A stretch of 38,270 nucleotides of DNA from a virus. Taxonomy: Duplodnaviria > Heunggongvirae > Uroviricota > Caudoviricetes. Below, one piece after another: positions 1 to 38,270 of this stretch. The notes under the pieces are model-generated. The model saw only the letters and a list, made by a program, of their open reading frames with translations, was not told the DNA's origin and made no database searches. The translations under genes were made by a program, and so were the position numbers. The stretch is from the IMG/VR virus record IMGVR_UViG_2609459790_000001, positions 1 through 38,270 of that record; one strand, given 5' to 3'. Positions within the stretch are counted from its first letter, which is position 1. The number at the start of each line of letters is the position of its first letter.

Positions 1-87
1 CTTTTTTATACTAAGTTGGCATTATAAAAAAGCATTGCTTATCAATTTGTTGCAACGAACAGGTCACTATCAGTCAAAATAAAATCA
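1..87. other. attL: Lambda-type attachment site: core (CTTTTTTATACTAA) followed by the P-prime arm; left prophage junction (attL)
   Basis: Window opens with the lambda att core and continues with sequence I recognise as the lambda P-prime arm (GTTGGCATTATAAAAAAGCATTGCTTATCAATTTGTTGCAACGAACAGGTCACTATCAGTCAAAATAA), directly next to the int stop codon. Confidence 0.8.
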
Positions 88-1158
88 TTATTTGATTTCA
101 ATTTTGTCCCACTCCCTGCCTCTGTCATCACGATACTGTGATGCCATGGTGTCCGACTTATGCCCGAGAAGATGTTGAGCAAATTTATCGCTTATCTGCT
201 TCTCATAGAGTCTTGCAGACAAACTGCGCAACTCGTGAAAGGTTGGCGGATCCCCTTCGAAGGAGAGACCTGATGCTTTTCGTGCGCGCATAAAATACCT
301 TGATACTGTGCCGGATGAAAGCGGTTCACGACGAGTAGATGCAATTATGGTTTCTCCGCCAAGAATCTTTTTGCATTTATCAAGTGTTTCCTTCATTGAT
401 ATCCCGAGAGCATCAACATGCAATGTTGTTGGGATGGCAATTTTTACGCCTGTTTTGCTTTGCTCGACATAAAGATATCCATCTACGATATCAGACCACT
501 TCATTTCGCATAAATCACCAACTCGCTGCCCGGTAACAACAGCCAGTTCCATTGCAAGTCTAAGCCAACATGGTGATGATTCTGCTGCTTGATAAATTTT
601 CAGGTATTCGTCAGCCGTAAGTCTTGATCTCCTTACCTCTGATTTTGCAGCGCGAGTGGCTGCGACCGGGTTTGTTGTTATATGGCCTTCAGCTATAGCC
701 TCTCGGAATGCATCGCTCAGTGTTGATCTGATTAACTTGGCTGATGCCGCCTTGCCCTCGTCTATGTATCCATTGAGCATTGCCGCAATTTCTTTTGTGG
801 TGATGTCTTCAAGTGGAGCATCAGGCAGACCCCTCCTTATTGCTTTAATTTTGCTCATGTAATTTATGAGTGTCTTCTGCTTGATTCCTCTGCTGGCCAG
901 GATTTTTTCGTAGCGATCAAGCCATGAATGTAACGTAACGGAATTATCACTGTTGATTCTCGCTGTCAGAGGCTTGTGTTTGTGTCCTGAAAATAACTCA
1001 ATGTTGGCCTGTATAGCTTCAGTGATTGCGATTCGCCTGTCTCGGCCTAATCCAAACTCTTTACCCGTCCTTGGGTCCCTGTAGCAGTAATATCCATTGT
1101 TTCTTATATAAAGGTTAGGGGGTAAATCCCGGCGCTCATGACTTCGCCTTCTTCCCAT
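88..1158 (-). CDS. int: Tyrosine integrase, lambda Int type
   Basis: 356 aa translation matches lambda Int essentially over full length (MGRRRSHERRDLPPNLYIRNNGYYCYRDPRTGKEFGLG ... catalytic region with HELRSLSARLYEKQ and GHKSDTMASQY). Confidence 0.97.
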   Translation of the reverse strand: MGRRRSHERRDLPPNLYIRNNGYYCYRDPRTGKEFGLGRDRRIAITEAIQANIELFSGHKHKPLTARINSDNSVTLHSWLDRYEKILASRGIKQKTLINYMSKIKAIRRGLPDAPLEDITTKEIAAMLNGYIDEGKAASAKLIRSTLSDAFREAIAEGHITTNPVAATRAAKSEVRRSRLTADEYLKIYQAAESSPCWLRLAMELAVVTGQRVGDLCEMKWSDIVDGYLYVEQSKTGVKIAIPTTLHVDALGISMKETLDKCKKILGGETIIASTRREPLSSGTVSRYFMRARKASGLSFEGDPPTFHELRSLSARLYEKQISDKFAQHLLGHKSDTMASQYRDDRGREWDKIEIK

Positions 1159-4228: not shown

Positions 4229-4717
4229 TTATTTGATAAGAAGTGAAGGTTTCCCAACTTTGAGTTGAGCGCCGGGGATATTTATTCCTGCTTTTAGTTG
4301 GTGCTTGATTGCCAACTTGTCGGCTTTAATTGTCGTTTCGAACTCAACGTATTCAGGAGGAAGGGCGCTTGAGTCGATGATTTCTACAATTTCTGACGGT
4401 TTGCGGATTGTTACCTGGTGAATACCTGCTCGAATATTTTTCTTGCCAACCATTTCAAGCGATGACGCTATATATGATTTGATGCTGTCAATCTTATTTT
4501 GAATTACTGCGGCTCGCTCATTCAGTGACTTTGCCTCTTCCTTGAGGCGTTCAGCATAACCAGATTCATTTTTAATGACGGAAAGAAGTTGCTCTATTTT
4601 ATCGGTAAATTCTCCTTCCATGCCTTCTATTGTGTCAGCAATCATCTCTGGTTCTAAATCTGAATCCATCAATTTTGCGTATTCATTGGCAATTTCATAC
4701 AGTTTGCTCACTGGCAA
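4229..4717 (-). CDS. Gp157-like protein (siphovirus Gp157 family), recombinase-associated
   Basis: 162 aa, coiled-coil rich, immediately downstream of the RecT-family gene with overlapping start/stop; pattern matches remembered Sipho_Gp157 family members that accompany RecT/Erf in phages. Confidence 0.55.
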   Translation of the reverse strand: MPVSKLYEIANEYAKLMDSDLEPEMIADTIEGMEGEFTDKIEQLLSVIKNESGYAERLKEEAKSLNERAAVIQNKIDSIKSYIASSLEMVGKKNIRAGIHQVTIRKPSEIVEIIDSSALPPEYVEFETTIKADKLAIKHQLKAGINIPGAQLKVGKPSLLIK

Positions 4718-5606
4718 CCTCCAGTTTCGCTTTGCATTCTATGTAAATGGCTTGTACGTTCTGCTGCAATTCCATTCCAGATGTCAGGCGATATGCTTCT
4801 GCAAAATATCGCTTCAAATCATCCATGTTTTCTGCCTGAGCCATTTCATCGCAAAGAAGTTGTACTTTATCCATTATTTCCTGCTGGCGTTTCCGTTCAT
4901 CTTCGCGGATATCTTCCTCTGATTTGTGCGGCATAACTGGTTCAGTCCACACACCTTCTTCTTCGTTTAGTACGTGAATAGCACTATCAAGACGTGATGC
5001 CTTAGGCCAATACTTGCTTGCACGCTTTACGACCGTCTTTCGCGCCATCTCATTCCAGTGATTTACCCATGGTCCTTTATCGCTGAATGCTGCCTTGCTT
5101 GTTTTCCTTACAGCCTCAATTTCAGCCAGACTCATCTCTTCCGTTAGATAATCACCTGCCGGCGTCTTAACTGTGCAGTAAACGCCAACGATATCACCAC
5201 GATCACCGAAGGCGTTGTATTTATGGGTTGGTGCTTTATCAAGCCCGTTTGACTCATAGGTATCGTTAGCATGAACAAGTTTTGCCTGACCCCATGAGAT
5301 AACACCAGACTCCATTGCAATATGGAGCAATCCCATATAGCTGATATCAAGGCAAACCATGCCGTCGCGAGGAACCAGATAAGCCAGTTTGCTGGCAGGG
5401 TTTAAGGTGATGCCGATCGCCGCAACATTGATGATGGCGTTCTGTGCGCTGGTTGGATTTGCCAGTGCCGTTTTAGCCAGGTAATCATTTTTCTGGAAAT
5501 ACTGAATTGCAAACTGGCTTTCCTTAGCCCATGTCACCGTCTGTTCAGTCAATGCTCCGCAGAATAACTGCTCTTGCTGTTTAACGAATTCAACGATATT
5601 GCTCAT
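4695..5606 (-). CDS. recT: RecT-family single-strand annealing recombinase
   Basis: 303 aa; the segment GPWVNHWNEMARKTVVKRASKYWP aligns to the conserved GPWVTHWEEMAKKTAIRR motif of E. coli RecT. Confidence 0.85.
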   Translation of the reverse strand: MSNIVEFVKQQEQLFCGALTEQTVTWAKESQFAIQYFQKNDYLAKTALANPTSAQNAIINVAAIGITLNPASKLAYLVPRDGMVCLDISYMGLLHIAMESGVISWGQAKLVHANDTYESNGLDKAPTHKYNAFGDRGDIVGVYCTVKTPAGDYLTEEMSLAEIEAVRKTSKAAFSDKGPWVNHWNEMARKTVVKRASKYWPKASRLDSAIHVLNEEEGVWTEPVMPHKSEEDIREDERKRQQEIMDKVQLLCDEMAQAENMDDLKRYFAEAYRLTSGMELQQNVQAIYIECKAKLEVASEQTV

Positions 5607-7209: not shown

Positions 7210-7743
7210 TTACTGGCTCCGTCCATGATTTTCATGAAAGCCATATAGTGCATTGGCTTCTTTCCTTGCTTGTTTGGCATCATCTAAAAGTTTGAATGAG
7301 CCTAGGTATTTTCGTTTTCCATCCACAGTTATCGATGCAACATAAAACCCATGCTCTTTTCTTGCTTCAACACCTGTAACTCCAGTTGATGAAGATGATT
7401 TTAAAGGCATGTTTTTCATATTCTCTTTGAAAGAAACGCTTCTTAAATTGGAGATTCTGTTGTCATCCTTAACGCCGTTTATGTGATCAATCACATCAGG
7501 CCAGTAGCCATGCACGTAAAGCCATGCAAGTCTGTGAGACTTAAATTTTTTACCTCCAATATTTATTCTCAGATAACCCTTGTTGTCAGGTGAGCCAGCC
7601 TTTTTACCTGGATACTTCTTGTTCCACGTCAAGGCAGCTCTGTTATCCGCAAACAAATGCTTTGCTCTCGGCTTCCAATAAAAGTCACCACTCACAGGAT
7701 TGTAATGAAGAATCTCCCTTACAGACGCTTGAGTAAGATCCAC
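7210..7743 (-). CDS. HNH endonuclease with AP2-type DNA-binding domain (homing-endonuclease-like), first gene of the PL operon
   Basis: 177 aa; motif YWPDVIDHINGVKDDNRISNLR (HNH_3 type) and a C-terminal AP2-like segment; GTG start with AGGAGG ribosome-binding site. Confidence 0.85.
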   Translation of the reverse strand: MDLTQASVREILHYNPVSGDFYWKPRAKHLFADNRAALTWNKKYPGKKAGSPDNKGYLRINIGGKKFKSHRLAWLYVHGYWPDVIDHINGVKDDNRISNLRSVSFKENMKNMPLKSSSSTGVTGVEARKEHGFYVASITVDGKRKYLGSFKLLDDAKQARKEANALYGFHENHGRSQ

Positions 7744-23912: not shown

Positions 23913-24434
23913 TTATTTCGATATCGTGATGTTGTTTTCCTCGTCAAACTTTCTGATTACTTCTTTCGCCTCTTCGAATGAAGAACATACTTTTTGCACT
24001 CTTGCATTAAGCAGTCGCTTATGAGCGATCCATCTTTTCCGCGTGTTGCAAAAGTAAACTCCAGATATTCCGCTGGAGTTATTTTTAGATAGTTTGATTC
24101 TATTCCTTTGGTTTGCTGATTTTTTCACAAGACGAAGATTTTCAATTCTGTTGTCGTGGCGAATCCCATTTATATGGTCAATTTCCATGCCTTCTGGAAT
24201 ATCTCCGTTAAACATTACCCATACGATGCGGTGTGCTAGCCACTTAATGCCGTTAATTCTTATGCGGATATATCCATTGCTTTCTAAAAGACCAGCAACT
24301 TTCCCAGCGTGTTTTGCATTCCAAACGTTGTGATAGTTGCGATTCTTTTTGTTGTTGAAAAATTCAGAGCTTCTGGCTTTCCAAACCAAAGAGCCATCGC
24401 GGTATTCGAAGTATTCATTCAGTTCCATGCTCAT
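23913..24434 (-). CDS. HNH endonuclease with AP2-type domain, antisense insertion between scaffold and coat genes
   Basis: 173 aa; motif EIDHINGIRHDNRIENLR; paralogous to the ORFs at 7210..7743 and 12886..13455; AT-rich; stop codon abuts the scaffold stop. Confidence 0.85.
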   Translation of the reverse strand: MSMELNEYFEYRDGSLVWKARSSEFFNNKKNRNYHNVWNAKHAGKVAGLLESNGYIRIRINGIKWLAHRIVWVMFNGDIPEGMEIDHINGIRHDNRIENLRLVKKSANQRNRIKLSKNNSSGISGVYFCNTRKRWIAHKRLLNARVQKVCSSFEEAKEVIRKFDEENNITISK

Positions 24435-35658: not shown

Positions 35659-37725
35659 ATGACAGACATTACAGCCAATGTGATTGTATCGATGCCTTCG
35701 CAACTCTTCACTATGGCGCGTTCTTTTAAAGCCGTAGCCAATGGCAAAATTTATATCGGTAAAATTGACACTGACCCGGTAAATCCTGAAAACCAGATTC
35801 AGGTTTATGTAGAGAGTGAAGATGGTTCTCACGTTCCTGTTTCGCAACCAATCATCATTAACGCTGCTGGTTACCCTGTATATAACGGACAGATTGCCAA
35901 ATTCGTTACCGTGCAAGGCCATTCTCTGGCTGTTTATGATGCGTATGGTGCTCAGCAGTTCTATTTTCCTAATGTGCTTAAGTATGACCCTGACCAGCTA
36001 AGACAGAAGTTAGATGGTGTTGGTGGGGTTAATTTAGTAAATGGGGCATTACATGGTGCCATGGATTCAGATCCAAATGTTGGTTTTAAAATCACCACAT
36101 CCTCAGGTGAGATTTACGAATATGCTCCGGGAATTACAGGTCTTGCCGATGGGTTTTCGGTATCAGCATCACAGTTATATTTAACAAGGAATGGCCTATC
36201 TTATAAATACTCTTCACCTCATAACACACTGGTTTGGCCATCTCAGTATATCGATACGAGTGCTGATGCGAAATATTCAATTGAATCTATTATGGCGCAC
36301 GGATTGAATGTGGACCTTAACGGAACTACAGTAAAAGCCAGCACCATTAATATTACGAAAGATTTGATTAATGGTGAAATTGTTGCTATCGGAGATGAAG
36401 GATCATTTATAACAGTAAACTCATGCATGCTTAACAATATTAAAGTTAACTGCAATATGATGGCAATTAGAAGGCCTGTTCATATCAAAACAGGGGCTGT
36501 TAATCCAGTAGTTAAGAATGTTGATGTTTTTGATAGTAATGGTTCTCAACTAACTTATGGTATTTTCATAGATGCAAATTCTGTATTGAATTTTGTCGTT
36601 GATAACATATCAATACATAATATTACCACCATTGGAAATGGTATTCAGATTGATGTAATTGGGCCATGTCGAGGGGTTATTGTAGGAACGGCACTTGATC
36701 CAGTACCATCAAATGATGATGAGGTATCAAGTGGAGTTATAAGTAACGTAAGGGTTTACAAGCTAAACCCTTGGGAAGATGCTGATGGTGTTGTTATTCA
36801 GATTTACAACTCATCATCAAATATGCTCAGCGGGAAGAAAATAAAGGTTGATGGCGTTTATACTTACAATGCACTTAAGCGAGCAGTTAAAGTTCAGGCC
36901 AATGATGTTACAGTAACAAATGTATTTGCGGTTTGTGATGACGCCTCAGCAACTAACCCTATGTATAGTTGTGTTAGTGTTTATGGTAGTTCCTGTGTTG
37001 TTCGTGGTGTTAGTGGGCGAGGAAGGATTGGCAATGGTGTTGATTCATCTGATGGGTTCAATACTATCAGTGATGTTTATCTTAAGACGACAGCAACCTA
37101 TGAGCTAAGCGCAGGTCTACAGATAACTTCCGGGCAGGTAAACGCGAATAACATTCACTCTGAAGGATCAAGATACATAGTCGCAATTCGGGCAGTTAAT
37201 AACACAACACCGTATGTAAATATTAATGGCATATATGGGCAAGGTTATGACGGGGCGATTTTGTTAGAAATCAGATACGGATTTAATATTGGTAATGTTT
37301 ACTTAAGTGATATTTCAGTATCAAGTTCAAATCCCACAAGGTCTTCATTCTTCTTTGATATATTATCAGGTGGAATGATATCTCTTATCAGCGTGTCAGA
37401 CGTCAAGAGAATCAGTCAGGCATATAACGGACCAGATATAAACATTTCTGGTGGGGTTAAAAAAGCTATTGTTAAAAATTCAGTTTTTGAGAGTGGTTCG
37501 TCAAGCATTGGTGTATCAATGGCAACTGGTACTTTAGTTGCATCAAATATATCAGCACAAAGTAAATCTTATGCTGTCAGCGCTACACAAACCACAAATT
37601 CACTTATAAATAACATTGATGGAATCGTTAGGGTTGATAGCACAACCAACAGTAATGTCGGCCTTTACAGAGGGATTACCCCTGTTGGGACTAACACAGG
37701 ACTGAAAACTGTTTTCTATATATAA
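35659..37725 (+). CDS. 9: Tailspike protein: HK620/P22-type N-terminal head-binding domain fused to a divergent beta-helix receptor-binding domain
   Basis: N-terminal ~115 aa ([52 protein letters not shown]...NVLKYDPDQ) matches remembered HK620/P22 tailspike; the remainder is AT-rich and differs from both. Confidence 0.92.
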
Positions 37726-37921
37726 TTATATATAACCTTTTGATGTTTTATATGATGTTATCTTGGCAGGGACGCCAGCAATAGTGCAATTTCCATCTTT
37801 AAAATCTTTGTTAACGACTGCATTCGCGCCTATTGCACAATTGTCACCTATAACTATCTTCCCGTAAATTTTTGCTCCAGGACCAATGTAGCAATTATCA
37901 CCAATTACAGGGGATTCAAGT
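37726..37921 (-). pseudogene. 3' fragment of a hexapeptide-repeat acetyltransferase gene, truncated at a junction with IS3
   Basis: Minus-strand frame reads ...[64 protein letters not shown]-stop (left-handed beta-helix acetyltransferase C-terminus); the reading frame ends at the IS3 junction with no start. Confidence 0.6.
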
Positions 37922-38234
37922 CCTGCTCCAACAGATTTTCTGACACAGGCAGGCCGTGTGCGCGGTAGCTGACCGGGCTGAACTTCCGGGAGGCCTTTGC
38001 CCTCAGTCCCTGACGGCGCAGGCTTGCCGCCACGGTTTTTACGTTAAAGGGGTAACCCTGAGCACGCAGTTCATCCGTCAGGCGTGGGGCACCGTAACGC
38101 TGTTTTGACCGGGTAAAAGCCGCGAGGACAACGCTGTCGCAGTGTTGGCGGAACTGCTGACGCGTGCTTATCCTTGTCCGCCGCTGACACCACGTATACC
38201 AGCCGCTGCGGGCCACCCGGAGCACGCGGCACAT
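37922..38234 (-). pseudogene. insF: IS3 transposase orfB (InsF) N-terminal fragment
   Basis: First ~104 codons of IS3 orfB in frame, then divergence and a stop at the junction (track ORF 37905..38234 reads through the junction for 5 unrelated codons). Confidence 0.85.
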
Positions 38235-38270
38235 TGCTTTGATGCTGAACTCAGCCTGATGTTTTTCAAT
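37922..38270 (-). mobile_element. Partial IS3 (internal segment, reverse orientation), truncated at 37922 and running off the window end
   Basis: Reverse complement matches remembered IS3 sequence from within the orfA/orfB overlap through the N-terminal part of orfB (InsF: [67 protein letters not shown]...); homology stops abruptly after codons LLEQD. Confidence 0.85.

Follow-up and report, generated by a model that had tools for sequence, protein, structure and literature searches.

A P22-like prophage at the lambda attachment site

The window analysed here, 38,270 nt in length, is the whole of draft contig JNRG01000034.1 (assembly GCA_000704565.1), and its host is a human E. coli isolate listed in a published table as E. 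coli 2-474-04_S1_C1 (PMC9638481). The contig encodes the P22-like virion families coat, gp4, gp10, gp7, gp20 and gp16, together with an antirepressor and a tailspike with a P22-type head-binding domain (Pfam Head_binding, 4e-65). This virion module identifies the element as a P22-like (Lederbergvirus-type) prophage. Apart from its right-hand end the prophage is full length, with 37.9 kb between the att core and the acetyltransferase stub described below and a complete P22-like gene set.

The left end of the prophage (positions 1–1158, minus strand) was read directly from the sequence. The lambda att core CTTTTTTATACTAA occupies positions 1–14 and is followed by the P′ arm and by a lambda-type integrase gene at 88–1158 on the minus strand. 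The exact Int protein adjoins ybhC in many E. coli genomes (its lookup returned 9,544 blocks), while an exact lookup of the ORF at 2123–2812 returned no record. Using an exact lookup of the RecT-like ORF at 4695–5606, we reached a contig of the Logan assembly of run SRR1186664 that extends the left end beyond the window. This contig reads gaagcctg, then CTTTTTTATACTAA, and on the bacterial side runs into ybhC, the arrangement of a canonical lambda attL, B arm included. This places the prophage at lambda attB (between ybhC and ybhB-bioA), with the B arm, core, P′ arm and int of an intact attL.

At the other end of the contig lies the gene for a P22-type tailspike of 688 aa (35659–37725, plus strand). 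Residues 1–115 form the head-binding adaptor, whose sequence matches the N-terminus of the Sf6 and P22 tailspikes in the PDB, and residues 123–688 form the receptor-binding domain. For the latter, a PDB search gave no sequence match to known receptor-binding domains. The tailspike stop codon TAA (37723–37725) abuts, with zero spacer, a stop codon of the minus strand (TTA at 37726–37728). As the first-pass annotation had noticed, a minus-strand acetyltransferase sequence begins directly at this point, and it is followed to the end of the contig by a piece of an insertion sequence.

The acetyltransferase stub and the IS3 fragment

The stretch at 37726–37930 (minus strand) is the 3′ remnant of a gene for a hexapeptide-repeat O-acetyltransferase, as identified by alignment to the intact gene and by Pfam Hexapep. 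It corresponds to the last 205 of the 552 nt of a gene encoding a protein of 183 aa (WP_000625801.1), and comprises codons 117–183, i.e., 67 codons, plus the stop. Alignment to the three intact E. coli copies gave 1–2 mismatches over the 205 nt (204 of 205 positions are identical to L001 and L002). The remnant scores 48.2 bits against Hexapep and the intact protein 47.2 bits, both well above the cut-off of 27, so that membership in the superfamily is clear. The family assignment made from the window alone and the view that the gene is a truncated remnant of the 183-aa enzyme found intact in relatives thus both hold, and the earlier count of about 65 codons becomes 67. The N-terminal 116 residues are absent from the stub, for which we found neither a promoter nor a canonical start codon; accordingly, the ORF list contains no frame of at least 30 aa starting with ATG, GTG or TTG on its strand. 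Because the promoter, the canonical start codon and residues 1–116 are all missing, the stub is unable to yield an enzyme.

The remainder of the contig, positions 37921–38270, is an internal piece of IS3 (IS3 family), which runs from nt 726 to nt 377 of 1258 and whose transposase direction in the window is the minus strand. The numbering was derived from the ends of a complete copy read in L004 (972–2229, giving 1258 bp), to which the segment is identical over 350 of 350 nt. In megablast searches the same segment is 99.7% identical to thousands of copies annotated as IS3. Only codons 6–122 or thereabouts of OrfB are present, which cover the HTH_21 region; no integrase-core/DDE domain was found in the segment by Pfam, HTH_21 being the only match. 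At the acetyltransferase side the terminal inverted repeat is absent, since IS3 nt 727–1258, which carry the catalytic domain and IRR (TGATCCTACCCACG...), are missing; in the complete copy, IRR lies 532 nt further on. IRL, orfA and the target-site duplication lie outside the contig, which ends at IS3 nt 377. With its catalytic domain and one of its ends missing, the IS3 remnant cannot transpose. These results bear out the first-pass description of an internally truncated IS3 without an inverted repeat at the junction, the breakpoint being at nt 726, in orfB.

Reading across the two parts, the minus strand contains a chimeric ORF of 109 aa that starts at an internal ATG (37905–38234). From the ORF list and its translation, it consists of the truncated OrfB followed by four codons (LNPL) in antisense acetyltransferase sequence and then a stop. 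Its only Pfam match is HTH_21, and an exact lookup of the 109-aa protein returned no record. For annotation purposes, positions 37726–38270 are best described as two pseudogene fragments rather than, as gene callers have it, a 59-aa 'Hexapep' protein and a 106-aa 'HTH_21' protein.

A ten-base-pair microhomology at the junction

The boundary between the two parent sequences was defined by ungapped alignments to both. The last base that belongs to the acetyltransferase gene only is 37920 and the first that belongs to IS3 only is 37931; the ten positions in between (37921–37930), TCCTGCTCCA, are common to both parents. The fusion had first been placed at about 37921/37922. This location is right, but it marks the left edge of a 10-bp overlap and not a single point. 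The word TCCTGCTCCA is found at L001 6922–6931, within the acetyltransferase gene, which spans L001 6727–7278, and at IS3 nt 717–726, and it is the longest same-orientation word which the acetyltransferase gene and IS3 have in common. When all 692,607 possible joins between the two sequences were considered, an overlap of 10 bp was obtained in 11 (1.6e-5), all of them inside this one word, and 10 bp was the maximum.

Since the junction lies 532 nt inside IS3 and has no inverted repeat, it arose by deletion or recombination and not by simple insertion, in agreement with what the first-pass annotation had concluded from the lack of that repeat. The overlap suggests that microhomology-mediated illegitimate recombination, and not transposition, made the junction. 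Candidate mechanisms for such events are slipped-strand or template-switch replication errors and microhomology end joining. A transposase-catalysed origin, either as a simple insertion of IS3 into the acetyltransferase gene or as an IS3-mediated adjacent deletion, would be in keeping with the common disruption of prophage morons by IS elements and with the abundance of IS3 in E. coli (matches in 3,667 of 5,426 complete genomes). However, the products of transposase end at the inverted repeat, while this junction is at IS3 nt 726 with IRR absent, and the shared 10-bp word is the signature of homology-guided joining; we regard a junction made by transposase as extremely improbable. An earlier transposase step, namely the original insertion of IS3 nearby, nevertheless stays part of the recombination model that we favour.

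A different concern is a false join: the isolate might have intact versions of both the acetyltransferase gene and IS3, linked at a short word only during assembly or library preparation. The junction indeed lies within a repeat of many copies, only 350 nt from the contig end, and the parents overlap by few bases. Moreover, none of the 5,426 complete E. coli genomes contains the exact junction, and a 42-nt junction word had no match in IMG/VR or in the GTDB species representatives. On the other hand, contig SRR1186664_33 of the Logan assembly (k=31) matches the window without a difference over 12,292 nt, crosses the junction and ends at 37950, which is exactly 30 nt past the last non-IS3 base, where 31-mers become pure IS3 and a graph has to split toward the other copies of the element. 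This contig shows no branch at 37930 toward an intact acetyltransferase gene, as would be expected if reads from such a gene existed, and an overlap of 10 bp cannot mislead a graph of 31-mers. The same unbranched junction in an independent k=31 assembly thus argues that it is not an artefact of the assembler, and a chimera of either kind is very unlikely. The junction is known from one contig record and one sequencing run, which possibly derive from the same or from a sibling isolate.

Taken together, the region is very probably a scar left by the decay of the prophage, in which a microhomology deletion joined a conversion gene to a dead piece of IS3. The sequence of events would be as follows. 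An ancestral P22-like phage with a lambda-type int/att module would have integrated at lambda attB beside ybhC, and the prophage would once have had a complete gene for the 183-aa acetyltransferase, convergent with the tailspike gene and abutting it, as a lysogenic-conversion moron. A copy of IS3 would have been present to the right of this gene, with its IRR end facing it, probably within the gene or just upstream of it. RecA-independent illegitimate recombination may then have joined the two at TCCTGCTCCA, the only word of this length that they share, most likely through replication slippage or template switching, or else through microhomology end joining. The deletion would have removed acetyltransferase codons 1–116 with the promoter, anything between the gene and IS3, and IS3 nt 727–1258. 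What we describe is ordinary prophage decay. The junction offers a clean natural case of a microhomology-guided deletion between an IS element and an adjoining gene, and deletions of this kind are one route by which prophages lose accessory genes.

How far the deletion may extend, and whether attR survives

The window contains no second att core, even when 2 mismatches are allowed. The lambda core occurs once, at base 1, and the earlier statement that the window has no attR is therefore correct. Given that the contig stops inside IS3, the missing attR does not show that attR was lost from the genome. The closest complete relative, A357, is a P22-like prophage at the same site, with about 0.5 kb from the tailspike to attR and ybhB. 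We found no lineage in which the acetyltransferase gene lies beside a lambda-type attR, and all intact copies seen lie with intS/argW; for this reason, the right end before the deletion is a reconstruction based on A357 and not an observation.

The same junction could have resulted from a deletion of small extent, with a loss of about 0.6–1.5 kb, after which the prophage would be complete and competent for excision, and the P arm and attR would lie just past the contig end. Several observations are consistent with this. Deletions of the slippage type favour short distances, the prophage is otherwise full length at 37.9 kb, and A357 has little DNA between tailspike and attR. Moreover, the first base of the GenBank contig is exactly the one from which attL and an attP of the A357 type would no longer differ, and a minor attP branch in the reads would cause a contig break at the att core. 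In contrast, the Logan assembly has no attP branch at the att core and passes straight into ybhC, which implies that attP reads are rare or absent, and nothing is visible beyond IS3 nt 377. Overall, we give this particular outcome, in which a short loss leaves a complete and excisable prophage, slightly less than an even chance. The short range of slippage and the otherwise complete 37.9-kb prophage lead us to favour a small deletion as such, and the chances that attR is retained beyond the contig end are roughly even. The small-extent reading and the decay scar described above differ on extent only.

Distribution and family of the intact acetyltransferase

The intact 552-nt gene was found in 3 of the 5,426 complete E. 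coli genomes, namely those of K99B, KD602 and JNE132847. These strains and three prophages from IMG/VR share the order tailspike (plus strand), acetyltransferase (minus strand), intS (minus strand) and argW (tRNA-Arg), and the full prophage of KD602 has torI at its far end. This order, together with torI, matches an Sf6/KplE1-type module, with attP beyond int. The intact copies thus lie where a serotype-conversion gene of a temperate phage is expected, with the tailspike on one side and the int/att module on the other. Among public assemblies the exact 183-aa protein occurs on about 520 contigs. A blastn query made of the acetyltransferase gene and the 3′ end of the tailspike gene had zero matches among GenBank phages, and tblastn with the acetyltransferase gave only distant ones there, at no more than 39% identity.

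The best NCBIfam matches of the protein are EpsC (2.7e-22), CysE (2.8e-17) and WcaB (6.8e-10), all under the curated cut-offs. With 79 bits against a cut-off of 150 for EpsC, and 39 against 195 for WcaB, these are the nearest families and not families to which the protein belongs. The name given by PGAP, CysE serine O-acetyltransferase, was rejected, as the protein scores 63 against 211 for TIGR01172 and 45 against 397 for PRK11132 and is without SATase_N. Likewise, it is not a relative of Sf6 Oac or of acyltransferase-3 proteins: it is without Acyl_transf_3, and its Pfam matches are to Hexapep-type families only. Two homologues from outside phages, 72% (P0004) and 59% (P0073) identical, lie among genes for glycosyltransferases, Wzx, Wzy, Wzz and Ugd, and near the 72%-identical one a separate, genuine CysE of 273 aa with SATase_N is encoded.

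A candidate cassette of receptor-binding domain and acetyltransferase

Residues 123–688 of the tailspike are 88% identical to the C-terminal 565 aa of a 780-aa protein whose N-terminus is a T7 tail-fibre domain and which is carried by an unrelated temperate phage. There, an acetyltransferase 86% identical to ours abuts the gene for the 780-aa protein, the two being convergent, stop to stop, with 0 nt between them. The pairing of the 86%-identical acetyltransferase with the 88%-identical domain in an unrelated phage indicates that receptor-binding domain and acetyltransferase move as a cassette. The G+C content of the receptor-binding domain and the stub is low, about 35–39%, a value typical of surface-polysaccharide genes and thus a pointer to a polysaccharide substrate. 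The homologues within polysaccharide clusters, the cassette with a receptor-binding domain and the low G+C all lead to the same kind of substrate, and suggest, reasonably in our opinion, that the intact enzyme would O-acetylate the polysaccharide recognised by the tailspike and so mask the receptor in lysogens. The first-pass proposal that the fragment could be the remnant of a serotype-converting gene gains from this context, that is, from the slot it shares with oac of Sf6 (see below), the cassette and the polysaccharide-cluster homologues.

Going one step further, the receptor-binding domain and the acetyltransferase might constitute an undescribed mobile cassette for 'recognise and then mask', swapped between P22 head-binding and T7 tail-fibre adaptors, that would O-acetylate the O-antigen or capsule to which the phage binds. 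We hold this idea tentatively, as a possibility somewhat short of likely. If true, ordinary (non-K1) E. coli would have a cytoplasmic route of seroconversion that differs from the membrane systems Oac and Gtr. Such a cassette would be half destroyed in the present prophage, and the lysogen could have lost its mask against superinfection while the phage keeps its tailspike. Coupling between acetyltransferase and tailspike might also help to predict which pairs determine the host range of phages in commensal E. coli. This uncharacterised combination of a receptor-binding domain with a hexapeptide acetyltransferase is the sole mildly novel aspect of the locus, and the window contains its wreck.

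Comparison with known conversion genes

Gene 15 (oac) of Sf6 is the classical serotype-converting moron. It has the same slot and orientation as the intact acetyltransferase, in the order tailspike (plus strand), acetylase (minus strand), int (minus strand) and attP, and the Sf6 integrase gene has the same size as that of the loci with an intact acetyltransferase, 1158 nt. The enzymes themselves are different. Sf6 Oac has 333 aa, carries the annotation of a lipopolysaccharide O-antigen acetylase and is one of the integral-membrane acyltransferase-3 proteins, whereas the enzyme considered here is a soluble left-handed beta-helix protein of 183 aa; the two are analogous and not homologous. The short enzymes of the EpsC/WcaB type resemble it as its best NCBIfam matches and through its homologues in polysaccharide clusters, but our gene is phage-borne and paired with a tailspike. 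Seroconverting podophages similar to Sf6, such as Kapi1 (E. coli MP1, at argW), have a candidate conversion gene between tailspike and integrase, and phages of this type use the O-antigen as their receptor and modify it as well (bioRxiv 10.1101/2021.04.09.439263). The candidate gene of Kapi1 is, however, unrelated or uncharacterised, and the prophage in the window has lambda-type int/att and not intS/argW.

Functionally, the nearest analogue is NeuO of CUS-3, likewise a member of the hexapeptide superfamily. The gene neuO is likewise a moron of a P22-like prophage encoding a soluble hexapeptide-repeat O-acetyltransferase; its product, the polysialic acid O-acetyltransferase of E. coli K1, shields K1 strains from K1 phages, for which that polysaccharide is the receptor. 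NeuO has phase-variable heptanucleotide repeats. In sequence NeuO is not close: in the PDB search, chain 2wlc of the polysialic acid O-acetyltransferase family matches only the last 50 residues or so (E=3e-6), far behind CysE-like chains. Moreover, the tailspike of the window has no match for its receptor-binding domain and is not identified as an endosialidase. The comparison draws on the literature (PMC9659370) and on these PDB scores.

CUS-3-like prophages occupy argW and, more rarely, the lambda site between pgl and bioA. They are prone to decay; in strain CE10, for instance, one copy of neuO is reduced to nt 537–777, its 3′ end (PMC9659370). The neuO locus and the window display a like pattern of decay, although the acetyltransferase and the tailspike differ. 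Other 5′-truncated alleles of the acetyltransferase gene itself are present in public assemblies, with products of 144 aa (120 contigs), 115 aa (11 contigs) and 76 aa (1 contig), examples of these alleles being GAB0728069.1, ELX9774897.1 and EHJ6821270.1, and their existence indicates that loss of the 5′ end is recurrent for this gene.

The tailspike and acetyltransferase genes

The tailspike gene (window 35659..37725, plus strand) and the acetyltransferase remnant (37726..37930, minus strand) meet stop to stop. A perfect 18-bp A+T palindrome at window 37717-37734, TATATATAA|TTATATATA, is centred on the two convergent stop codons. In the three relatives with an intact acetyltransferase (K99B, KD602 and JNE132847), the left arm of the palindrome reads instead TATCAATAA, because the C-terminal residue of their tailspike is Q and not I. 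No G+C-rich terminator is found between the two genes here, whereas the Sf6 tailspike/oac pair has one.

A Logan contig of run SRR24146898 (L019, 3106-6000) carries the receptor-binding domain of the window's tailspike (88% identity) together with the acetyltransferase (86%), again abutting stop to stop. Here the fibre has an N-terminal domain of the T7 tail-fibre type, and the pair adjoins genes for a P4-type integrase, a holin and a lysozyme. Since the host element is a temperate phage different from the window prophage, the recurrence of the same abutting pair indicates that the receptor-binding domain and the acetyltransferase constitute a mobile two-gene cassette.

5′-truncated alleles of the 183-aa acetyltransferase WP_000625801.1 (P0122, P0125 and P0130 in its protein cluster) are common in draft genomes, with lengths of 144 aa (120 contigs), 115 aa (11 contigs) and 76 aa (1 contig). 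One of these truncated alleles may represent an IS3-insertion intermediate of the deletion seen in the window.

The left contig edge

The GenBank contig starts exactly with CTTTTTTATACTAA (window 1-15), lacking the 5′ G of the att core. In the closest complete relative, the prophage of strain A357, attR reads ...TTCAA|CTTTTTTATACTAA (locus L008, ~10797), while attL of the window's own strain, taken from the Logan k=31 contig SRR1186664_17 (L029), reads ...GCCTG|CTTTTTTATACTAA. As the flanks differ, base 1 is exactly the point at which identity between attL and an attP-type sequence would set in. A minor attP branch, originating from excised phage, could explain a contig break at this base; against this, the Logan contig crosses the att core into ybhC and terminates in a REP element. 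The GenBank and Logan sequences differ at 2 of 15,606 positions in the left part and at none over 12,292 nt in the right part; SRR1186664 may therefore have been sequenced from this very isolate, the assemblies differing slightly, or from a sibling isolate.

HNH_3 genes and the KD602 argW region

The window contains two free-standing HNH_3 endonuclease genes on the minus strand, both probably homing endonucleases. One (7210-7743) adjoins the repressor gene; the other (23913-24434; Pfam HNH_3, 3.9e-22) separates the scaffold gene from the coat gene and runs antisense to them, an insertion annotated also in KD602 and A357.

In KD602 (L007, 6600-17500), a second island is located past torI, after the argW prophage. 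Besides a further tyrosine recombinase, it carries AAA/RloB genes, HxsABCD, and a serine recombinase accompanied by two ParB-like genes; the prophage and this island have the appearance of elements stacked in tandem at argW.
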